Assembly: GCA_019338205.1 (NCBI GenBank)
Contig: GCA_019338205.1_4761.1
Length of the DNA: 64,000 bases
Strand: one strand, 5' to 3'
Origin: a phage
The first letter of the stretch is position 1, and the number at the start of each line of letters is the position of its first letter. Position numbers and translations under genes: made by a program. A model generated the notes under the pieces. It saw only the letters and a program-made list of their open reading frames with translations, was not told the origin of the DNA and made no database searches. Shown piece after piece: positions 1,572 through 13,701 of this stretch.

Positions 1572-4500
1572 TAATTTTCCTCTGTGTCGGATTCTTCGGA
1601 TCGCGTGGATTCCCTATATTATCCTTCAACCGTTTATCTACAAGTTCACGGAACATAGAGAATGTTACCGCCGACTGGTCAAACAGTGGACTCATTGCAA
1701 ATCTTCGTTCGCTTGCTTTAAGTCCGTGGAACAATTCGCTGTTCTCCTGATCATATTCAGGGGGAACCGGAAATTCTTCACCAATTAAAGGTGAAGTCAA
1801 ATATAATGCTTTTCCGGTAAGCGGGTCAATCTTAATATTTCCATCAACATCAAGATCAGCAACACGATCAGGATACACGCTAGGCAATCCGCTGTCAAAC
1901 TTATAATTTTTCAGAGATTGAATTATAGTCTCGGTGTGCTTCATGCTCAACCCGCTGTTAATGAACATCGTAAGCAGGGTAACACCGATAAACCCAAAGC
2001 CGACAGGATGAACGAATCGCATTACATCATTTGCATAGCGCGAAACTGGCAATGCGCTTTTAATCTTCATGGTGTATTGGCTTCGTGAGCGGTTGATATA
2101 GTCGATTGAACTACTCAACAACTCTTTACCACGCACACCAACAAGGATCATCCCTTCAAACGCTGTTTTCTCTGATTTGATCACTTGACCTTCTTCGAAC
2201 CGCCCGATCAGGTTATGAATGGTTACTCGCCAGCGTAGGCGACCACCTTCATATTCCCTTTCAAGATACGTCACGTTAGCCCGTCCGGTTGGAGTATAAA
2301 TCGTGCGACCTACGATATCCTCGTCAATGTTCGTTGAACTAACAACAATATCATACTCTAGTCCGGCTTGTGATTCAACCTCAATTTCCACATCTTCATT
2401 ATAAAGTAACTTAAACAAGAACTTATAAGAAGCCTCCACGCCCTTAGTGGAATAAAAATCTGATTTGCGGGATTCAAAGAATCTTACTACCGCATCTCGC
2501 TTGTTTTTATCTGCATAGATGTTTCGTTTGTTCATCTCTGACCAAAGATACTCATATGCATCTTGCTCGCGTGGATATTTGTTTTTAATCAGATTTTTTA
2601 GTTTATTATAATATGTTCCTGAACCATCACTTAAGAATTGCAGATAATATTCAGAGAATTTTCTGAAATTTTCGTTCTCAAGCAAAAAGCTATCCGGTGT
2701 CATCTTATTCAGTAAAGGCCGCAAATCTGGATCTTGCTCTCGATCGTAGTGAACCGGAACCCAGGGAACCTCTCGGACCTGATTTTGCAGTTCAGCAACA
2801 AATGCTACATTTGTAGGCTTCCAATATACACCAACCTGATCACGAACGCGATAGTTAAATTGATAGAATCCTATGATCTCTCCTGTGTTTTTATGGAACA
2901 TTACACCGGATGCATATTGTTTGAATCCTTCAAATTTAACATTGTTAAGATAACAGGTCACGGTCCCTTTATCATAAACTTCTCGGTTGACCCTATTTTG
3001 GTCAAGAATGCCAGATGTATCAACTTCTTGAGTGTAGATAACCTCTGGATAAACAACCAACGGGCGATTATCATTTGTGATCCACACACGGACACCGTTT
3101 CGACGCATCCATGTATAATCGGCCTCATTATAATACGCTTGCGGTCCTAACTCCCAAATACGCAAATCATCATAACTTGCTCTGAAAGTAGTTTGATGTA
3201 TTTTCTTATCAGTTAGATAAGTTGGCTCCTGAGAATATTTTACAGCTTCGCCCAATTCATATTTCGCGGCAGTTTCTGGATCAGGTAAAATGCTTTCGAA
3301 GTGATGATTATAATGGCTTATGAACACCTCATCACCATTGGTTGACATATTACTGAACCCATGCTGAATATATTCCCTTTCCTGCGGAGTGTTGCCAAAT
3401 ACTCTCTGAAAAGACAGACCATCACTCCCTATCAAGTATACACCCGCATCATCTGACGGAACAACGTTTTCTGGTTTAGTTGGATCTTGATAACGCTGTT
3501 TAACTTCACCAGTAACAAATACAAGCAATTTACCGTCGATCACATCCATTTTCTGAATGACAGCTTTATCATTTCCTGTTACTCGAATAACATCAGGATC
3601 GAATATTTTTTCGCCAAACGTAGGCGAACCCTGTACGGTATCAACTGGAGTATTCTTAAGACGAATCCGGCGAATAACATCCTTAGCACCAACCCACAAA
3701 TAGTCATCACTACATGCCATAGCTTCGGCGTATTTTGTGGTGTCCCCTGTTAATCTGGAAAATACACCAAAGACCTCAACGTCAAAGCCTAAATCGTTCT
3801 CGTCACCAACCTTTGCAAAAGTGATCGTATCATCACTAAATCGAACATCGTCCGCGCTCCATCGAGTATCGCTCGCTTGTCGTCCGTAAAAGATTCGATC
3901 ATATCCTAAAACGTAAGTAGTGGTTTTAGACTGATAAACGCATGTACGGGAAACCGGATTGCCTACACGGTCATTAAAAGCCTTGTATGCTTTCCATGAT
4001 TGGCCTTTATCGTTCGACACCTTCACAATCGGCTGGAACCGTTCGAAAAGGTACAAAACACCGTTCATTTCCGCTAACATAGTGCGGTTTATATCAGTAC
4101 AAACTTTTTCTATGTGGTCCTGTATTTCATGAAAGTTCTCATCAACTACAATGTAGTTTGAGATATTTGTCATGTTTGCATATTCAGGACTAAAGACAAA
4201 ATCTTCCTTCATCAATGATGCTTGAATCAGGTCAGTATTAAACTTGACATACTCTCGATTATCGTATGTAAATTTTTCCTTTATAAACTCGTTTGCAAGG
4301 TTGAACTCTCGCATCATAGAAAAATTATATGCGTTTGTTTTAAATGTCTGAAACTCTTCTGTCTCAACCCATTTACTTTGTTCAAATCCTTCTGCGGCTA
4401 CTGCTACACGAAACTTGTAATAATATTCTGGAAAAAGGTTTTTATCCTCAAACCAGTTTTGGTCGGCAGTATATCCCAGGTTTACCCAGCTTAACTCATC

Positions 4501-4650
4501 GACGGGGATGATCTCCCCGTCTCGTGTTCTGGTTTCGGCTAACTCCACAAAATAAAAGAAGTTTTCGCCTACGTCATCCCATGTGATATACGCCTGATTA
4601 GCAGACAATTTTTCTATTGTCAAGCTAGTTACACTAGGCGCTTTAATCAT
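1564..4650 (-). CDS. 7: baseplate wedge protein gp7
   Basis: 1028 aa versus T4 gp7 1032 aa; synteny between genes 6 and 8; overlapping stop/start. Confidence 0.8.
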   Translation of the reverse strand: MIKAPSVTSLTIEKLSANQAYITWDDVGENFFYFVELAETRTRDGEIIPVDELSWVNLGYTADQNWFEDKNLFPEYYYKFRVAVAAEGFEQSKWVETEEFQTFKTNAYNFSMMREFNLANEFIKEKFTYDNREYVKFNTDLIQASLMKEDFVFSPEYANMTNISNYIVVDENFHEIQDHIEKVCTDINRTMLAEMNGVLYLFERFQPIVKVSNDKGQSWKAYKAFNDRVGNPVSRTCVYQSKTTTYVLGYDRIFYGRQASDTRWSADDVRFSDDTITFAKVGDENDLGFDVEVFGVFSRLTGDTTKYAEAMACSDDYLWVGAKDVIRRIRLKNTPVDTVQGSPTFGEKIFDPDVIRVTGNDKAVIQKMDVIDGKLLVFVTGEVKQRYQDPTKPENVVPSDDAGVYLIGSDGLSFQRVFGNTPQEREYIQHGFSNMSTNGDEVFISHYNHHFESILPDPETAAKYELGEAVKYSQEPTYLTDKKIHQTTFRASYDDLRIWELGPQAYYNEADYTWMRRNGVRVWITNDNRPLVVYPEVIYTQEVDTSGILDQNRVNREVYDKGTVTCYLNNVKFEGFKQYASGVMFHKNTGEIIGFYQFNYRVRDQVGVYWKPTNVAFVAELQNQVREVPWVPVHYDREQDPDLRPLLNKMTPDSFLLENENFRKFSEYYLQFLSDGSGTYYNKLKNLIKNKYPREQDAYEYLWSEMNKRNIYADKNKRDAVVRFFESRKSDFYSTKGVEASYKFLFKLLYNEDVEIEVESQAGLEYDIVVSSTNIDEDIVGRTIYTPTGRANVTYLEREYEGGRLRWRVTIHNLIGRFEEGQVIKSEKTAFEGMILVGVRGKELLSSSIDYINRSRSQYTMKIKSALPVSRYANDVMRFVHPVGFGFIGVTLLTMFINSGLSMKHTETIIQSLKNYKFDSGLPSVYPDRVADLDVDGNIKIDPLTGKALYLTSPLIGEEFPVPPEYDQENSELFHGLKASERRFAMSPLFDQSAVTFSMFRELVDKRLKDNIGNPRDPKNPTQRKING

Positions 4651-6551
4651 TGAGCAATTGCCTCCAGACTAATAGTTGTGTACTGAGGACGGAGATCGTT
4701 TTCAAACACGATCAAAGAACCGTCTTTAGTAAAGATGTTATCAGCAATCGGTTTAGCTATCAACTCAATATATGAACCAGTAAAGCGATCGCTATTGATA
4801 TTCAGTTTACCCAGATCCCATGAAATAAGGTCTTCATAATGCTGAACCTCTCCAACCTCAAAGTATAGGTCCGCACCGTCGATAACCTCTTTATCAAAAT
4901 CAGTGCCGGAATAGTGCGGTAAAGCGATTGCAGAACCAACAGGGAAAGGTCCAACCAGCAATTTAGCTAAACCGGATTCTTTGTTCATTTCTGTACTTAC
5001 ATAATGGATCGGATATTGCTTGTCGTCCTTTTCGAAGTTGAACGAACTAGACTTGATTCCGCTCTTATACTGGTTTAAAAACTTGATTCCGGCCATAGGT
5101 GCTTTATAGAAGTTGTCGATCTCTCGAACCATCTCGATTTCTGCACTAGAACCTATCACAGATACATCAGCTTTGTCAATACGAGCAAGCATTTTAGACT
5201 TACTAAATGTCTGGTTAAAAATTTCCACTTCGTCGGTATAATATGCATCAATCTGATCAATAACCGCACCGCGCAACCACTGCTCTGATTCTGACAAGTC
5301 ATTGATTGAATAGGAAACTTTAATATTCTGTTTAATATACAGATAGTTAGGGTCAATGATGCTCGGCGTGATAGGGGCAAGATTATATTTTGCCAGATAA
5401 TCCCGCATATCTTCTTTTTGAACAGTTGTCAAACGCAAGCCAGATTTAGGCTTAACAGCAACAAAAGCATAACCCGGTTTTTCTCGGTCGGTGAAACATT
5501 GTACCGCCTGAACAATACTACCAAAACGGCTAGACACAAAAGCCTCATAGTCGGAAGCAGTTACACAACGACGCTGAGATTCACGCATTACCGGAGCAAG
5601 TTCACGGATACGTTCGATTGATTCAGGATCACCACCACCATCTGCACCGACATAATCACGATCATTTGTCGGATTCTCAATAATTTTAACAATAGAGATA
5701 GATGCAAGGGTATCCGCATATGTAAAATTAACTGAACCGTTTGCTTCCGCGCCCTTAGTGCTAATATATTCGATAACAATATTAGCACCAGTTGACGGCT
5801 TAAGTCCACCAATATAATTTGCTTCCAGCGCCCCGCCAGCAGCAGATAAAGTTGATTCACCTTCACCAAAGAAGATTTCTGTATGACCGTCTACGGTTTC
5901 ACGCATATAGAAAATATTACTAGCGCCAGTTGCATTAACAATACTTTCTCGCGTCCAGTCTTTCCATTCAGCACCGTCTACCCACAACTTAACCTGAGCG
6001 CGGTCAATATCTGGATCGCGGATCAGAATTTGTTTCTTCGGATCAAATAACATTTCTGTACGAACAATACGACCTTGCGCGACTTTAAGCATAGGAGTAT
6101 ATAAACCATTTGAACCTAAAACGCTCACAACGTCTTCTGTAGTAACAAACGGATAAGACGTCTGGTGGTCCACACTTGCAATAAATTTAGTTCCTCGTGG
6201 GATTCGAATACTTGCCGGATTTCGCGGATGTGTTACGTGCAACATAATTGTAGTCGATGCACTAGTTTTACTTGCTGGCAAATATCCTAAATCTTGCGCG
6301 GCTTGAACAACTGAACTACGCTTAATTGCCGTTCTGATAAAAGATTCATATAGAGCGGCGTTGGCGAATTGCTGAATATAAAGGGTATTATATGCGAGCA
6401 AGTCCATCAATACGTTAATACCAGCACCATTAAAATCAAAATCTTTAAATTCTTCCTGGTTTCTCATCCAGTCTGTTAATGTGCTTTTAATTTCATCAAA
6501 CGTAGCAGCATTAAAAATATCAGGAATTTGTGTAATCTTTTGCTTTGTCAT
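4647..6551 (-). CDS. 6: baseplate wedge protein gp6
   Basis: 634 aa versus T4 gp6 660 aa; synteny downstream of 5.4. Confidence 0.8.
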
Positions 6552-7973: not shown

Positions 7974-9773
7974 TCACCCAAGATCAATACGGCTACCATC
8001 AATTTTAACTGTACCAGATGCAATATCTTTAACGCTTGCACCACAATTACGGGACCAGTCACCATTAACCTGATCTGATTTAGTGCCATTGACGGTCATA
8101 TTAAAATTACCCTCAACGGTTAAATCATAGTTACCTTTAATTGTTTCGGTAGTGTTACCCTCGATCATTAATTCAGCATTACCCTTGACGTTAGCCGTCA
8201 AATTGGCGTCAAGCTGCGCGGTAACATCACCTACAACATGCATATTTGCAGTACCTTCAACGGTCTGATTAACATTGCCACGAATAAATTCAGTGACGTT
8301 ACCATCAACGGTTTGCATCACATTACCCATATAATAAACTTGCGCGTCACCTTCAACAACAACTTGCAGATTGCCTTTAACGTTGACTTTGCGACCTTGC
8401 TTAACGATCAAATAATCATCACCTTCAATCTTTTCTACCCTCGTTCCGTCCGGTCTGGTTTCTTCAAATGTACCAGAAGGATGTTTACGATGATAACGCT
8501 CGTGAGAAGGAGTATCATCAATCTCGATAATATGACCGCTCTCTGACTCGTACACATGGTTATATGGATACCTTGCAGAATACGAACTCTTAGGCTCTTT
8601 AAACATGATTCGTGTGTCTTGTGGGGTAAACGGTGCTTCTGGGTCTTCTTCTGCTCTCTGCGTCTTATAGGCAGCAATACGGGCATTTCTCAAACGTGCT
8701 CTCGGATCATCTGAAACAGTTTCCTCTTTCTTAGGAGCAATTACGCCATATGATTCTAAGTTGCCAGTAAGAATAATTTTAGAAACACGGCTGGAGCGTC
8801 CTGGAGTTTGATTAGCCCATACTGATTGACGTAATCCATCATAGGCTTGTTTCCATTCTTCCGCTAACATCGCAGCAAGACTATTCTTAAATTTACCCAA
8901 TCCACCAACGCCCATTTGAAACGCCATATTTTCTAATGCCATACGACGTGAGGCATTACATTTATTATAGACAGGTGCAATTCGTGGATGTTTGCGCATA
9001 TCACGACGAGTCTTTTCTATATCGTCAGCAAATACTTTACTAACTTCTTCGGCGGTAAGTCTTCCGTTTGTAACTTCACGCCCTACCAGCTTAGAAAGTT
9101 CATTATTGATAATACCCAGATCACTGGTTTTCTTATAAATGATCAAATGCCCGATGCCTATTGTCGGATATCCTTCTGAATCAAGATACCATTTCTCGCG
9201 ATATCCCTCATCGCCCCGCAGCATTTTTTCTATTGTAAAATCAGGATTATCATCAACCGGAATTTGGTCTAATGGCTCGTCGTCTGGATTTACTGCAACT
9301 CCAGTGTTTTCATCTCGAATATAGACACTATCAGGTTTTGTTGTTTGTCCGGTTTCTGGGTTAATACCGCCACGAGCAAGAATATTAACATCATTACCAA
9401 TATAACGAGGATATGCACCAGAAGGGTCGCAAAAACCTTCTGTAGTGAGTGGTTTCTCTGTATATTGTCCGGCAATAGTACCCAGAATAACGCAGTTTAA
9501 ATAACGTTCATCTAAAGCCAAACCAAATACCATTGAACCTTCAACAATACCAGTAGGGCTTTGACCTATACCGGAGATCGCCGCGCTTGTAATATCTTGT
9601 ACTGGCGTAATCCATAATAGATCTTCGGTTGGAAGACCTTGAATGTCACCGTGTGCGGATAGCGAAGGATGTATACCATGAATCCTAACCTGAACACGCC
9701 CCAGCATTAATGGGTCTTCCCTGTTTTCTACAATTCCGGTAAACCATTTAACGGAGTTATTAAACATTAGCAT
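7974..9773 (-). CDS. 5: baseplate hub / tail-associated lysozyme gp5
   Basis: 599 aa; T4-lysozyme-like motif DSEGYPTIGIGHLI; C-terminal beta-helix repeats (VxGxxxxx); N-terminal OB-fold region; T4 gp5 is 575 aa. Confidence 0.9.
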   Translation of the reverse strand: MLMFNNSVKWFTGIVENREDPLMLGRVQVRIHGIHPSLSAHGDIQGLPTEDLLWITPVQDITSAAISGIGQSPTGIVEGSMVFGLALDERYLNCVILGTIAGQYTEKPLTTEGFCDPSGAYPRYIGNDVNILARGGINPETGQTTKPDSVYIRDENTGVAVNPDDEPLDQIPVDDNPDFTIEKMLRGDEGYREKWYLDSEGYPTIGIGHLIIYKKTSDLGIINNELSKLVGREVTNGRLTAEEVSKVFADDIEKTRRDMRKHPRIAPVYNKCNASRRMALENMAFQMGVGGLGKFKNSLAAMLAEEWKQAYDGLRQSVWANQTPGRSSRVSKIILTGNLESYGVIAPKKEETVSDDPRARLRNARIAAYKTQRAEEDPEAPFTPQDTRIMFKEPKSSYSARYPYNHVYESESGHIIEIDDTPSHERYHRKHPSGTFEETRPDGTRVEKIEGDDYLIVKQGRKVNVKGNLQVVVEGDAQVYYMGNVMQTVDGNVTEFIRGNVNQTVEGTANMHVVGDVTAQLDANLTANVKGNAELMIEGNTTETIKGNYDLTVEGNFNMTVNGTKSDQVNGDWSRNCGASVKDIASGTVKIDGSRIDLG

Positions 9774-9784
9774 AATTAATCACC

Positions 9785-10339
9785 TTACACATCAGCCTTT
9801 TCCATTTCTCGAATGAATGCGTTAATAAATTGTTTAATTTGTGTAGGGTCTATGATCTTGATCTTGCGTCGTTCCTCATTGCGGAGGATCGCATCTTCCA
9901 GTGTGTCTACCGCCGATAATGCACCTTGAAACTGCAAATGACGATGATGAATATCCCCTTTATCATACCAATTGCTTGATCCTTTCGGATATTCTGTAAG
10001 ATTCCAATACTTGTTTCCGTCAATATCAACATGGTATAATACTTGATTTCCTCCTACATTTGCATATCGTTGTTCGGCTGATTCATATGCTGTCTCTTGA
10101 TCGGTGATCCAGTCATGAAACGGATCGTATACGTCATTAAGCATCAGCAAGATCCAGTAAAGTTGTTGGTTTCCGTATACTTCATATGCAACTTGTTCCG
10201 GTCGTGGACTACCTTGAATGTAATATGTTTGTATGTTATAATCAGAAATTATTGCGTTGAAATATGCGCGGTAATTGCGCACAATGTCAGTAATCATCTT
10301 GCCGTTGTATTCAATGGCAGGGAAGAAAGAAAAGAGCAT
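9785..10339 (-). CDS. 53: baseplate wedge protein gp53
   Basis: 184 aa; N-terminus MLFSFFPAIEY resembles T4 gp53 (MLFTFFDPIEY); directly upstream of gene 5. Confidence 0.8.
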   Translation of the reverse strand: MLFSFFPAIEYNGKMITDIVRNYRAYFNAIISDYNIQTYYIQGSPRPEQVAYEVYGNQQLYWILLMLNDVYDPFHDWITDQETAYESAEQRYANVGGNQVLYHVDIDGNKYWNLTEYPKGSSNWYDKGDIHHRHLQFQGALSAVDTLEDAILRNEERRKIKIIDPTQIKQFINAFIREMEKADV

Positions 10340-10371
10340 TTTATCACCCTCAATTGATAAATAGTATTATG

Positions 10372-10379
10372 TATTTATA
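10372..10379 (-). promoter_or_regulatory. T4-type late promoter TATAAATA for the 53-5-6-7-8 operon
   Basis: exact TATAAATA on minus strand about 33 nt upstream of gp53 ATG. Confidence 0.6.
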
Positions 10380-10394
10380 ATAAAGGGTGCTAAA

Positions 10395-11090
10395 ATGGAC
10401 TATCAAAAACATTATGATCGATTAATTGAACGCGCAAAGCATAGAACGCTTGAAGGATATAAAGAAAAACATCATATTATTCCTCGTTGTATGGGAGGCG
10501 ATGATAGTCCAGAAAATATAGTTGAGTTAACGGGGTCTGAACATTTTGTTGCTCATCAACTTTTAGCAAAAATGCATCCAACACATCACGGAATTGTACA
10601 TGCGGCGAAAATATTGATGGGGTCTACCAACTATAACAATAAACAATTTGAGTGGGTAAGAAAACTTGCGGTCGAGACTTCAAGAAAATTTCATACAGGA
10701 AGAAAAAGATCCGAAGAGACTAGACGCAGAATATCAGAAGCAACTAAAGGAAAGAGAAAAGGAATTAAATTATCTGAGGAACATCGACAGAAATTATCTG
10801 CTTCATTAAAAGGTAGAGTGTTTACAGAAGAACATAAAAGAAATATTGCGTCAAGAGAAATTACACAAGAATGGAGAGACAACATCTCTAAAGCGGGTAA
10901 GGGTAGAAAGTTGTCACAAGAAAACGTAGAGAAATGGAAACGTATTCATAACACGCCAGAAATGAAACAAAAATATAGTGAATTGTCAAAGTCTCGTCCG
11001 TATTTCACCTGTCCTCATTGTGAAAAAACAGCCAATCAGGGAAATTATGTTAGATGGCATGGTGACAACTGCAAGAAGAAGGTGGTATAA
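10395..11090 (+). CDS. HNH homing endonuclease with NUMOD3-like repeats
   Basis: HHIIPRCMGGDDSPENIVELTGSEHFVAH HNH motif; repeated GRKRSEETRRRIS / GIKLSEEHRQKLS modules; C-terminal CxxC...CxxxxxC. Confidence 0.8.
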   Translation: MDYQKHYDRLIERAKHRTLEGYKEKHHIIPRCMGGDDSPENIVELTGSEHFVAHQLLAKMHPTHHGIVHAAKILMGSTNYNNKQFEWVRKLAVETSRKFHTGRKRSEETRRRISEATKGKRKGIKLSEEHRQKLSASLKGRVFTEEHKRNIASREITQEWRDNISKAGKGRKLSQENVEKWKRIHNTPEMKQKYSELSKSRPYFTCPHCEKTANQGNYVRWHGDNCKKKVV

Positions 11091-11563
11091 TGGGTAATTG
11101 CAACACATATAAGGGTAAATATAGACCTGAAAACCCGGAGAAGTATAAAGGCGACCTGAAAAAAATCGTCTACAGGTCAAGTTGGGAATTACATATAATG
11201 AAATTTTTAGACCGCAATCCTAGAGTTGCAAAATGGGGATCTGAGACCGTAGTAATTCCTTATGAGTCATCAACAGACGGAAAAAGACACAGATACTTTA
11301 TGGATTTTTACGTTAAGTTTGATGATGGCAAGGAGCATTTATGGGAAGTTAAACCAGCTAAAGAGACAAGGCCACCGGAAAAGCCAAAAAGAATGACCGC
11401 GAAGACAAAGCAACGATATATGCATGAAGTATGGACATACACAAAAAATACTGAAAAATGGTTAGCTGCCGTGAAATTATGCCAAAAGCATAACATGGAG
11501 TTTAAGATCATAACCGAACATGCATTAAAGAAAGTGTTTGGCTTTAAAGGGCTTAACAAATAG
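11090..11563 (+). CDS. 4: head completion protein gp4 (PD-(D/E)XK-like fold)
   Basis: 157 aa versus T4 gp4 150 aa; divergent from gene 53 as in T4; motif FMDFYV...LWEVKP. Confidence 0.55.
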   Translation: MGNCNTYKGKYRPENPEKYKGDLKKIVYRSSWELHIMKFLDRNPRVAKWGSETVVIPYESSTDGKRHRYFMDFYVKFDDGKEHLWEVKPAKETRPPEKPKRMTAKTKQRYMHEVWTYTKNTEKWLAAVKLCQKHNMEFKIITEHALKKVFGFKGLNK

Positions 11564-11574
11564 AGGATAATATT

Positions 11575-12396
11575 ATGAGCGTATTTGAAATAATCACAGA
11601 AGACGAAAAGCCGTCTCCCCAAAAACGAAAGTCTAAACAGTGGGTCGAATTGGGTGTAGAATTTGCGAAAGCAAAAGCCAAAGGCATGACAGCTAAAGCA
11701 TTTGCAGATTCTAAGGGAATAGCCTATGCGACTTTCACTAAAAGTATGTCTCGTTATGCCAGCGAAATTAAAACAGCAATAGAAGTTGAAAAACTAAAAG
11801 GGAAAAGTGCAAAGGGTCTCAATAAGCAGCAACGCGCAATGATGATGATTAATGATTTTCGTGCGTCTATGCGTGCTGTATCAAAGAGTCGTCCTAAAGA
11901 AAAATCACAGGAATGGTTTACTAAAACAATAAAAGCGGGAATAAAGGGACACCAGATTGTAAAACCGCAAGTAGGGCGAATCTATACCTTTATGTATGAT
12001 GCTAAGTATAAAGACACTTTGCCATATTGGGATGTTTTCCCACTGATCATTTGTCTGGGTGATTCTAAGACAAAGGCGGGTAATACTGTAATGCTGGGTC
12101 TTAACTTACACTATGTAACGCCTAAAGCCCGTCAGCAGTTTCTGGAAGCACTTTTAAAGCAATATGCATCTACTCCTACCTTGAGTAATAAAACACGCTT
12201 AAAAATCAAATGGAGCGATGTAAAAGGTATGCGTGGTAGTGACCACATGATCAAAGCATATCTACCGGGACACATTAAAACAAAACTTGTTGAGATTAGC
12301 CCGAAAGACTGGAGCAATATTATCTACCTTAACACATATAAATTTGTTTCTAAAGGTAAAAACTATGATGCAAGGAAGGTGTGGAAGGATGCTTAA
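11575..12396 (+). CDS. 2: DNA end protector protein gp2
   Basis: 273 aa versus T4 gp2 274 aa; synteny 4-2-3; SD GAGGAT. Confidence 0.55.
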   Translation: MSVFEIITEDEKPSPQKRKSKQWVELGVEFAKAKAKGMTAKAFADSKGIAYATFTKSMSRYASEIKTAIEVEKLKGKSAKGLNKQQRAMMMINDFRASMRAVSKSRPKEKSQEWFTKTIKAGIKGHQIVKPQVGRIYTFMYDAKYKDTLPYWDVFPLIICLGDSKTKAGNTVMLGLNLHYVTPKARQQFLEALLKQYASTPTLSNKTRLKIKWSDVKGMRGSDHMIKAYLPGHIKTKLVEISPKDWSNIIYLNTYKFVSKGKNYDARKVWKDA

Positions 12397-13417
12397 TATT
12401 AATTCCGTGGGGAGCAATCCCCACGTTTATTATCTTCGTCAACCGGAAGAAATAGAATACAGAGTAAACAAGGTAACAAAATCTCCTAGAGAATTTGCGG
12501 ATAAAGTTATTGAAAGGTGTAAACTTGTCGACCATACATTCTTAGGATTTTCTGGAGAATGGAAAGGAAAATTGACTAGATCTGTTATCCAATGCAATAA
12601 GCATGGAACTGTCTATGATGTTTCCAGTAATAGTTTCTATGCTAAAAAGGTTATTGTTGGTTGCCCTCAATGTAGGGGAGTTATGACAGAAGAGGAAGCA
12701 ACCAAATTCATTGAAGAAAAATGTAAAGATCTTGATTATGAATTTTTGGGATTTGTTGGTGGCTGGAAATCACAAATTACTAAGATGATTCTTAGATGCA
12801 AGAAACATGACCATATTTGGAAGAATACAAAGTTCTTTGATTTTAAAAATCATGGTACATGTGGTTGTAAGAAATGTGCGGCTGAACAATTTAAGACGGA
12901 ATATGTCGTTCCCGTGGAAGATGCACTATCTAGAATAGAAGATAAATGTAAAAAGTTAGGGTATGAATATATAGGTGTCGATGGTGAATGGATAGGTACT
13001 GCAAATTCATGGATAAAACTTAAATGTACAAAACATGACGCAGAATTTTCTGTAAGATATTGTACGTTCAACAGAAATGCTAAAGGGTGTCCGAAATGTA
13101 GTTCTTCTGGCTATCGTCCATCTGAGATGGGATATTTTTATATCCAGACGTTAGATGATAAATTTATAAAGTTTGGTGTAACCAATGAATTACCGGAAAC
13201 CAGAATGAAACAACATATGCAGAAATCTAAGTTTGTTCACAAACTTGTTTACGTCAAACAAAGTGTTGATGGCTGGATTCCGTGGGAACTTGAAAAGGAA
13301 ATAAAGAGAACTTATCATTGTGGCGTTGTTGATAAATCCATGTTGAAAGATGGATACACAGAAACTTTACCAATCACGGAACTTGATAACATAATTAAAT
13401 TAGCTGATACATATTAA
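12389..13417 (+). CDS. putative endonuclease: three tandem Zn-ribbon-like repeats plus C-terminal GIY-YIG/T5orf172-like domain
   Basis: three ~57-aa repeats each with CxKH...GCPxC; C-terminal GYFYIQ...KFGVT...R..QH; inserted between genes 2 and 3; start taken at ATG 12389. Confidence 0.55.
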   Translation: MLNINSVGSNPHVYYLRQPEEIEYRVNKVTKSPREFADKVIERCKLVDHTFLGFSGEWKGKLTRSVIQCNKHGTVYDVSSNSFYAKKVIVGCPQCRGVMTEEEATKFIEEKCKDLDYEFLGFVGGWKSQITKMILRCKKHDHIWKNTKFFDFKNHGTCGCKKCAAEQFKTEYVVPVEDALSRIEDKCKKLGYEYIGVDGEWIGTANSWIKLKCTKHDAEFSVRYCTFNRNAKGCPKCSSSGYRPSEMGYFYIQTLDDKFIKFGVTNELPETRMKQHMQKSKFVHKLVYVKQSVDGWIPWELEKEIKRTYHCGVVDKSMLKDGYTETLPITELDNIIKLADTY

Positions 13418-13423
13418 AATTAA

Positions 13424-13446
13424 GCCCGTCATTGACGGGCTTTTTA
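13424..13446. terminator. bidirectional intrinsic terminator
   Basis: stem gcccgtc/gacgggc with 3-nt loop followed by TTTTT; A/T-rich on the other side. Confidence 0.6.
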
Positions 13447-13701
13447 TTATAGATCGATAGCATGAGCATAACCATGTAAGAAGTCTTTTAATTCTTCCTT
13501 ATTGGTAACACGCTGTAAAATCTCTAATGCCTTGTCGCGATCACGTAATGCACCTGAAAGGGATTTTATTTGGTCATCCCTTTCTGCAATCTGCTTAAGC
13601 AGATCTGTATTGCATTTAGACAAATAGAGAACTTCACCCCGCAATGTTGCCAATTCGTTATCCAGACGATCATAGAGTTTTAACAAAATGTCTTCTGTCA
13701 T
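13447..13701 (-). CDS. hypothetical coiled-coil protein (84 aa)
   Basis: ORF track; heptad-like charged sequence; SD-like GAGGAC upstream; only minus-strand ORF in this block. Confidence 0.35.
   Translation of the reverse strand: MTEDILLKLYDRLDNELATLRGEVLYLSKCNTDLLKQIAERDDQIKSLSGALRDRDKALEILQRVTNKEELKDFLHGYAHAIDL

Follow-up and report, generated by a model that had tools for sequence, protein, structure and literature searches.

A predicted Mob-family HNH homing endonuclease gene at the start of gene 4 in a Krischvirus phage

T4-like phages are rich in genes for homing endonucleases of the Mob and Seg families. MobA, MobE and I-HmuI each nick one strand of DNA, and to our knowledge nicks have so far been mapped for MobA and MobE only. 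The terminase-associated HNH endonucleases of cos phages are short proteins, and their gene lies beside the terminase genes and the cos site. For HNH enzymes of the I-HmuI and I-TevIII type, strand-specific nicking is the expected chemistry (PMC2988022). Intronless homing is known for SegF, SegG and MobE (PMC2988022; PMC2790892); in particular, the nick made by MobE falls in the 5' region of nrdB, just past the site where mobE itself is inserted, and MobE drives co-conversion (PMC2790892; PMC2988022).

In this study, we analyzed a 64,000-nucleotide stretch of phage DNA, hereafter called the window, which was identified as Krischvirus (an RB49/Phi1/GEC-3S-like coliphage) by a megablast of positions 9000-13500 that matched 60 records. 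We consider it likely that the ORF lying between genes 53 and 4 of the window (Table 1) is a free-standing T4 Mob (HNH) homing endonuclease gene that was recombined into Krischvirus along with ~113 nt from the beginning of a foreign gene 4 allele. The gene is an uncharacterised member of the Mob family, and its annotation as such is routine; near-identical or identical copies in GenBank (MIZ6, ELT4) are already labelled "homing endonuclease". No description of the Krischvirus gene-4 HNH gene was found in the open-access literature that we searched.

Table 1. Positions of the gene, its domains, its neighbours and its putative expression signals in the window
Feature	Position	Strand	Description
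gp53, divergent, upstream	9785-10339	-	Pfam PF11246 (Phage_gp53), E 1e-58; ATG at 10339
Late-promoter-like GATAAATA, directed towards the HNH ORF and genes 4 and 2	10356-10363	+	predicted function
Late-promoter consensus TATAAATA facing gene 53	10379-10372	-	exact match, 33 nt upstream of the gene 53 ATG
Mob-family HNH homing endonuclease gene (predicted), free-standing	10395-11090	+	231 aa, ATG start; ORF call, PHROG 655
N-terminal nuclease domain (predicted), aa 1-95	10395-10679	+	beta-beta-alpha HNH core aa 22-54 with H26/H27, N41, H50
NUMOD3-type helical repeats, aa ~100-200, presumed DNA-binding arm	10692-10994	+	Pfam score, homologues, model
C-terminal CCHC zinc-finger-like module (C206, C209, H222, C226)	11001-11075	+	invariance in the 60-sequence alignment
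New initiation region for gene 4 translation, located in the 3' end of the HNH gene	11079-11092	+	AAGGTGG, 4 nt, ATG overlapping TAA; read from sequence
Gene 4 (head completion nuclease)	11090-11563	+	intact, 157 aa; PHROG 218 head closure, E 4e-61; Pfam PF08722 (TnsA-like nuclease N domain), E 4e-21
HNH-linked diverged patch in gene 4	11095-11207	+	41 mismatches/113 nt vs insert-less Krischvirus
gp2 (DNA-end protector)	11575-12396		downstream of gp4

Family, domains and fold of the encoded protein

A sequence-only reading of the window had described the product as an HNH nuclease with NUMOD3-like repeats, and this description was borne out by profile searches of the protein and its homologues and by the predicted beta-beta-alpha fold. 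With the single sequence, NUMOD3 (Pfam PF07460) scored 29.4 bits against a gathering threshold of 20.4, with its best stretch at residues 102-120, and three Pfam HNH models scored just under their cut-offs (E 0.018-0.07). PHROG 655, "homing endonuclease", matched the protein end to end with an E-value of 5e-64, and 1675 homologues were present in a large protein database. Sixty homologues were aligned for the analysis of conservation and for the construction of a profile. Upon searching with this profile, we found a match to the HNH domain of EcoKMcrA (6ghc) with an E-value of 3e-4, in which the HH, N and H residues were aligned, and weaker matches to the HNH domains of group II intron maturase and Cas8f-HNH; an HNH fold was thus recovered by profile search. 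When the 60 homologues were scanned singly, Pfam HNH (PF01844) was matched by 42 of them, with a best E-value of 2.8e-6, and NUMOD3 by 52.

The residues invariant in the 60-sequence alignment fell into two groups, the first comprising E24, H26, H27, C32, G35, N41, L45, E49, H50, A53 and L57 and the second, near the C-terminus, comprising C206, C209, H222 and C226; every one of these residues is kept in the window protein. The window copy carries one private substitution, G210E, inside the CPHC[G]K sequence and next to the second zinc-finger cysteine, which is probably harmless because the position varies in the family. The AlphaFold2 model (mean pLDDT 92.4) revealed two strands (residues 24-27 and 42-45) and a helix (residues 47-60) forming a beta-beta-alpha element with H26/H27, N41 and H50, followed by six short helices between residues 107 and 199. 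Around the CCHC residues the model contained a small beta hairpin and a helix, and this module gave weak profile matches to the zinc-ribbon protein eL43.

Structural comparison of the full model and of the N-terminal domain model against the PDB with Foldseek placed HNH domains at the top (Cas8f-HNH, McrA, Gme HNH and Cas9 HNH), all with non-significant E-values of at least 0.6. Among the predicted viral structures of BFVD, phage HNH homing endonucleases matched with E-values down to 3e-19, and T4 MobB and MobC matched with E-values of 6e-9 and 1e-8, respectively. In a BLASTP comparison, T6 MobE was 41% identical to the window protein over residues 1-229 (E 1e-44), and the three-part architecture aligned throughout, including the CPHC...RWH...C finger. 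A phmmer search of the PDB sequences with the single sequence returned no HNH match, and the collagen-adhesin repeat that it did return was rejected as spurious; a search of NCBIfam with the protein gave no match.

Rfam at gathering thresholds detected no family, and hence no group I intron, anywhere in the window, from which we take the HNH gene to be free-standing. An intron-encoded origin of the I-HmuI or I-TevIII type was rejected on the same Rfam result and on the location of the ORF upstream of an uninterrupted gene 4. We also rejected the terminase-associated HNH class of cos phages, as the neighbours are gp53, gp4 and gp2, the protein has a long NUMOD3/CCHC extension and most close relatives have no such gene. 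The HNH motif, full-length homology, a free-standing ORF and presence/absence polymorphism, which are the sequence-level marks of Mob genes, were all found. Judged by these marks, the window protein is a Mob-family HNH homing endonuclease, and its nuclease activity is predicted.

The insertion at the gene 4 start and its expression signals

The same reading had located the ORF in the divergent 53/4 late-promoter region, where it was said to displace gene 4 by 700 bp and to overlap the gene 4 start with its stop codon, and had suggested a comparison of synteny. All of this held, with a small correction of the length. To this reading the present analysis adds a rightward late-promoter-like element that would drive the nuclease gene, the inclusion of the first ~113 nt of gene 4, in diverged form, in the mobile block, and the C-terminal CCHC finger. 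The ORF is flanked by gp53 and gp4, a late-promoter consensus faces gene 53, and gp5 is the further upstream neighbour, beside gp53. The stop codon TAA (11088-11090) and the gene 4 ATG (11090-11092) have their last and first A in common, as read directly from the TAATG at 11088-11092. We compared the insert-less loci of GEC-3S, Skers, Phi1 and JEP8 with the insert-carrying loci of MIZ6, ELT4 and PTE-Eco09 and found that the HNH ORF is an insertion relative to most close relatives. The 53/4 intergenic region of 55 nt is the same across the Krischvirus loci compared, and the HNH ATG of the window stands at the position of the gene 4 ATG in insert-less relatives; identity with the insert-less genomes continues through ATGG and then breaks. 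The gain amounts to exactly 695 bp from the position of the gene 4 start codon, and gene 4 is shifted downstream by the same 695 bp.

Across the genus, the gene was absent from ~55 Krischvirus records and present in six (ELT4, MIZ2, MIZ3, MIZ6, Brandy and PTE-Eco09) at no less than 98.7% amino acid identity, and copies in different genomic backgrounds were 98.7-99.6% identical to each other. Four states of the locus were observed: no extra gene (GEC-3S, JEP8), the HNH gene alone (MIZ6, ELT4), only a second kind of nuclease-like gene, located after gene 2 (Skers, Phi1), and both genes, as in the window. Near-identical copies in the same context were also found on 24 contigs, and the 8 places listed for them include several ENA and Logan samples; these contig-index counts refer to the cluster representative, the exact window protein having no record there owing to its private G210E. 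The carriers did not cluster in gp5/gp53 or in gene 2. In particular, the window was closest to the insert-less GEC-3S, JEP8 and Phi1 in gp5/gp53 and grouped with Skers and Cognac in gene 2, where MIZ6 and ELT4 grouped with GEC-3S and JEP8 and PTE-Eco09 was very different.

Because the HNH ATG occupies the site of the gene 4 ATG, the nuclease gene has inherited the promoter region and the Shine-Dalgarno sequence of gene 4. The latter is found in AAAGGGTG, just before the ORF, as a GGGTG core located 5 nt from the ATG. The ATAAATA core of the late-promoter-like GATAAATA lies at 10357-10363 (+), 32 nt before the HNH ATG at 10395. The first position of this octamer is G, not T or A; in late promoters of the RB49 type, the first (-13) T is reported to show little conservation (PMC1524935). 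The exact TATAAATA octamer was not enriched in the window (3 found vs 5.8 expected), and the ATAAATA core was depleted (10 found vs 24.6 +/- 4.6 expected). Four of the ten ATAAATA copies are located 22-33 nt upstream of late-gene starts, namely those of gene 53, HNH/gene 4, an 84-aa ORF at 13701 and gene 3; our late-promoter call relies on position and on the depletion of ATAAATA, not on enrichment of the octamer. The nuclease gene is thus likely transcribed late, as the first cistron of a 4-2 operon, as far as these signals allow a prediction.

A sigma-70-like TTGATA-16-TATAAT element (10354-10381) was considered as an early promoter of the nuclease and rejected, as transcription from it would start within the Shine-Dalgarno sequence, only ~7 nt ahead of the ATG. 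Elements of this kind are also frequent in AT-rich DNA, the window having 22 where 14.5 were expected. Unlike mobE, the HNH ORF was found to contain no terminator-like hairpin.

The diverged gene 4 patch and the same site in other genera

Gene 4 is continuous in the window, as is evident from its alignment with gp4 of relatives, and carries the diverged patch listed in Table 1. The sequences on both sides of the insert and patch are only ~1% diverged from insert-less RB49-type genomes, differing at ~5 positions over 400 nt to the left of the insert and at ~4 over ~690 nt beyond 11207. Of the codon changes in the patch, 14 are synonymous and 11 non-synonymous, and they leave gp4 at full length. 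At an identity of at least 98%, the patch was limited to the six HNH-carrying records, and the other matching Krischvirus records showed 71-77% identity in a sensitive search; the linkage between patch and HNH gene was complete across 65 records, which is a population pattern. At gene 4 positions 6-12, 18, 27, 30, 79-81 and 93, the insert-less alleles of the RB49, Cognac and JEP8 types all have one sequence and the HNH-linked allele has another, and one uninterrupted junction sequence is common to all three insert-less types.

By its position and linkage, the patch resembles either a tract acquired by co-conversion or an allele immune to cleavage. A near-invariant nuclease gene joined to a foreign piece of gene 4 in varied backgrounds is, as a sequence pattern, the signature of intronless homing. 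The gene 4 alleles of JEP8 and Cognac are diverged across gene 4 without any HNH gene, and therefore part of the patch linkage could reflect ordinary mosaicism; judged from these alignments, gene 4 is a recombination hot spot in Krischvirus with or without the HNH gene. No donor of the HNH gene and patch was found, the best non-Krischvirus protein being 61% identical, and the best match to the patch outside the linked group was another Krischvirus allele with 77% identity.

The next-closest homologues of the protein (52-61% amino acid identity) were found in the Yersinia phages TG1 and phiR1-RT (Tegunavirus), Escherichia phage UPEC07 (Gaprivervirus), the Aeromonas phages 25 (PHG25p128nc; Tulanevirus) and avDM5 (Biquartavirus), and Klebsiella phage KP182 (Jiaodavirus). 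The closest homologues of these five other genera were all located directly upstream of gene 4, and they are annotated solely as putative homing endonucleases. In the Aeromonas phages, the upstream neighbour of the HNH gene is 5.1, in the same orientation, and not the divergent gene 53. Identities between the HNH proteins of different genera ranged from 49 to 66%, a range flatter than those of gp2, gp4 and gp53 and not clearly higher. Such values agree both with a spread of the lineage between genera and with vertical inheritance accompanied by many losses.

To locate the stretch associated with the insert, carriers and insert-less relatives were compared in two further genera. UPEC07 and the insert-less ECML-359 were ~100% identical in gene 53 and gene 2 and only 70-88% identical throughout gene 4, and KP182 diverged from the insert-less Mineola from the intergenic region through nt ~1-168 of gene 4. 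The diverged regions of the three genera overlap in the first ~120 nt of gene 4. Judging from these polymorphism patterns, the recognition or nick site is probably within the 5' ~120 nt of the insert-less gene 4, a placement that parallels MobE, whose gene lies upstream of nrdB and which nicks the 5' part of nrdB. A more specific proposal is that the HNH lineage is specialised on the 5' end of gene 4, at the same locus in at least six T4-like genera, with its recognition or nick site around codons ~28-40 (window ~11170-11210); this proposal is tentative, and we regard it as rather unlikely to hold in full.

A separate observation concerns TG1 and KP182, whose HNH-linked gene 4 is interrupted by a +1 frameshift at TTT C. 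This spot corresponds to the part in which the patch of the window, where gene 4 is intact, is most diverged. The split may have been selected as an immunity to cleavage. Alternatively, ribosomes may slip by +1 on UUU_C and so bypass the split, in which case gp4 would be made at exactly its normal length; otherwise the products would be a 37-aa peptide and a 118-aa protein.

Proposed mechanism, rival explanations and comparison with known systems

If the gene is indeed a mobile Mob gene, its transcription would be late, from the own promoter of gene 4 (GATAAATA, 10356-10363), and its translation would use the former ribosome-binding site of gene 4. Gene 4 itself would now be translated from the Shine-Dalgarno sequence in the 3' end of the nuclease gene or by coupling at the TAATG. 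When a carrier and an insert-less relative infect the same cell, the enzyme would bind DNA through its NUMOD3 repeats and CCHC finger and would nick or cut the naive gene 4 within roughly the first 120 nt, and through recombination-dependent repair from the donor the recipient would then acquire the nuclease gene along with the patch beside it. Protection of the donor would come from its substitutions in 11095-11207 and from the interruption of the junction at the start of its gene 4.

We weighed this reading against three others. The gene could be an inactive or decaying remnant of the Mob family that has been kept since it carries the gene 4 initiation region between gene 4 and its promoter, which would make deletion costly. 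The location of the gene 4 Shine-Dalgarno sequence inside the HNH 3' end agrees with such a history, as do the private G210E in the zinc finger of the window copy and the presence of the gene in only 6 of ~61 Krischvirus records, and host regulatory signals embedded in homing endonuclease genes are known to favour their retention (PMC2988022). However, the ORF is full length with all family-invariant residues intact, its copies remain 98.7-99.6% identical in different backgrounds and recur nearly unchanged on the 24 contigs from several samples, and recombination with insert-less relatives would make a precise loss easy; we therefore regard a remnant as unlikely. Even less probable, in fact very unlikely, is that the gene is ancestral at this site in Krischvirus and that the insert-less state arose from repeated deletion. 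In favour of this account are the orthologues at the same site in six genera, whose 52-61% amino acid identity is close to the 51-60% of the core proteins encoded nearby. Against it, the carriers are not monophyletic in the flanking genes, and the uninterrupted junction is common to all three insert-less allele types. Moreover, the flanks are ~1% diverged whereas the linked patch is 36% diverged, and a patch of this kind between such flanks argues that the patch and the HNH gene were imported from a distant donor and not lost in situ.

The remaining explanation is that the nuclease has been co-opted, either for marker exclusion of competing Krischvirus or for DNA-end processing with gp4 and gp2, and that mobility is secondary. 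T4 homing endonucleases partially exclude T2 markers (PMC2993671; PMC2988022), a homing endonuclease is reported to help immune evasion (PMC13096335), and the gene, with its predicted late expression, adjoins gp4 and gp2. Most Krischvirus genomes are nevertheless without the gene, which is hence not needed for morphogenesis, and the protein has no sequence relation to terminase-associated HNH proteins. Exclusion would be a by-product of homing and not an alternative to it, and the occurrence of unrelated nuclease genes in the same region suggests a place where such genes tend to land and not a module with a joint function. We thus consider co-option improbable, less so than ancestral presence and more so than decay, and we retain the reading of an imported homing endonuclease gene.

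With regard to its wider meaning, the occupation of the gene 4 start by related HNH genes in six genera yields a testable target prediction for an uncharacterised Mob lineage. The 53-4-2 region appears as a hot spot at which several nuclease genes of unrelated kinds have landed; such a hot spot explains why the essential genes 4 and 2 are locally mosaic and is relevant to the engineering and comparison of Krischvirus therapeutic phages.

Upon comparison with described systems, we found that the window protein resembles I-HmuI and I-TevIII in combining an HNH motif with modular DNA-binding repeats; unlike theirs, its gene is not intron-encoded, and as a single sequence it had no significant match to solved structures. 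The UPEC07 HNH gene overlaps gene 4 by 23 nt, in contrast to the TAATG of the window. T4 MobA, MobB, MobC and MobD and the Mob-like genes of other T4-related phages have the same fold and architecture, as indicated by predicted-structure comparison for MobB and MobC, and they too are polymorphic free-standing ORFs between core genes, although their insertion sites differ and identity is only ~30-40%.

The closest parallel was MobE of T4/T6, located between nrdA and nrdB (PMC2790892), which has the same HNH core, NUMOD3-type repeats and C-terminal CPHC...H...C finger as the window protein. Both genes are free-standing and lie immediately upstream of a conserved gene with endonuclease-linked 5' polymorphisms, and both use host-gene transcription signals and overlap a neighbour at a start/stop codon. 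The two differ in arrangement and presumed target: mobE is promoterless and coupled to the end of nrdA, whereas the window gene is the first cistron behind a predicted late promoter and uses the ribosome-binding site of its host gene, and the presumed target is the late gene 4 in the window and the early/middle gene nrdB for MobE.

The second nuclease-like gene and the alleles of gene 2

The 53-4-2-3 region of these phages is a landing hot spot. Downstream of the HNH gene, the window carries a second nuclease-like gene that is polymorphic among Krischvirus genomes: Skers, Phi1, ECD7 and Cognac have it, and GEC-3S, MIZ6 and ELT4 lack it. Its product was found to contain CapR-homology repeats (Pfam PF21817, E 9e-15) and to match PHROG 681, "endonuclease" (E 4e-80); in the annotation of phage Skers, it is a GIY-YIG family nuclease. 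The HNH gene and this second gene together, as in the window, were found in none of the phage records and none of the eight metagenome contigs examined. Additional insertions were observed both between genes 4 and 2 and on the 3' side of gene 2 in other phages (see the table), and metagenome contig L022 contained an ORF of the same position and length as the 380-aa ORF of PTE-Eco09, with a faint CapR match.

Comparison of gene 2 (11575-12396) revealed that its allele type goes with the downstream nuclease-like gene and not with the HNH gene. In particular, the window copy differed by 10-14 nt from those of Skers and Cognac, which both have the downstream gene, and by 27-33 nt from those of MIZ6, ELT4, GEC-3S and JEP8. 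The association was incomplete, because Phi1 differed by 44 nt although it carries the nuclease-like gene. As judged from these sequence comparisons, the pattern suggests a second co-conversion tract that reaches into gene 2 from its 3' side.

Allele types and split forms of gene 4

Comparison of window gene 4 (11090-11563) with the JEP8 (L012) and Cognac (L010) loci showed that Krischvirus has at least four types of gene 4 allele. Divergence in the JEP8 type spanned nt ~6-390, with one additional codon, and that in the Cognac type covered nearly the whole gene. The upstream HNH gene was absent from both types of locus, and these alleles may have been left behind by earlier rounds of invasion and loss.

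We also observed that one additional base directly after the codons ...SWEQF splits gene 4 in HNH-carrying Tegunavirus and Jiaodavirus genomes. At the split, the sequence was TGG GAA CAG TTT C GTA ATG CGT TGG in TG1 and TTT C ATG ATG in KP182 and KEN22; the insert-less Mineola gene was in frame there, reading CAG TAC ATG ATG. From the sequence, a +1 slip on UUU_C would exactly regain the normal gp4 length. KpV477 gene 4 contained a second, compensating shift, as a result of which 14 conserved codons are scrambled. In KEN22, which has the split too, the same site is occupied by a different Mob-like HNH (41-46% identity). Among the annotation rows compared, all those with "head closure protein (x2)" or "head completion protein (x2)" were HNH-carrying. 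The gene 4 product was annotated only once in some other HNH-carrying rows, which indicates that annotation pipelines differ.

HNH codon 210, promoter-like motifs and terminators

Codon 210 of the HNH ORF (11021-11023), in the zinc-finger turn CPHC[G]K, encoded Glu in the window copy and Gly in every other near-identical copy, namely those of MIZ6, ELT4 and PTE-Eco09 and of two metagenome contigs; because of this Glu, the exact window protein had no entry in the contig index.

The late-promoter core ATAAATA was rarer than expected in the whole window, with 10 copies vs 24.6 +/- 4.6 in shuffles, and divergent pairs were located in two intergenic regions. Two sigma-70-like matches near the HNH gene, each near consensus at 11/12 positions, are probably due to chance in AT-rich DNA.

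Features of the 53-4-2-3 region in the window and in compared loci
Feature	Sequence	Position	Strand	Remark
Late-promoter-like pair	window	10357, 10372	+, -	ATAAATA, divergent, 53/4 intergenic
Late-promoter-like pair	window	13728, 13864	-, +	ATAAATA, divergent, ORF84/gene 3 intergenic
Sigma-70-like match	window	10354-10381	+	just 5' of HNH ATG, overlaps late-promoter pair
Sigma-70-like match	window	11062-11091	+	in HNH 3' end; -10 hexamer overlaps gene 4 ATG
Second nuclease-like gene	window	12389-13417	+	3' of gene 2, overlapping its end
Terminator-like hairpin	window	12406-12425	+	CGTGGGGAGCAATCCCCACG then T-run
Original bidirectional terminator	window	13422-13442		3' of second nuclease-like insert
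Gene 4 split	L005 (Yersinia phage TG1)	~2575-2585		compare window 11170-11210
Gene 4 split	L008 (Klebsiella phage KP182)	~2575-2585		compare window 11170-11210
Gene 4 split	L019 (KEN22)
Gene 4 split	L020 (KpV477; with compensating shift)
340-aa ORF	L010 (Cognac)	2158-3180	-	reverse-oriented, genes 4/2 interval
Different 380-aa ORF	L011 (PTE-Eco09)	3754-4896		3' of gene 2
Homing endonuclease	L015 (Yersinia phage P8)	1404-2051		genes 4/2 interval
Another homing endonuclease	L006 (UPEC07)	from 3741 onward		3' of gene 2

The second nuclease-like gene contains the terminator-like hairpin within its initial codons; the hairpin was found in three of the seven loci checked (Skers, Phi1 and Cognac), the only ones with this gene. 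The 5' coding regions of T4 mobE and segF likewise contain terminators (PMC2988022).
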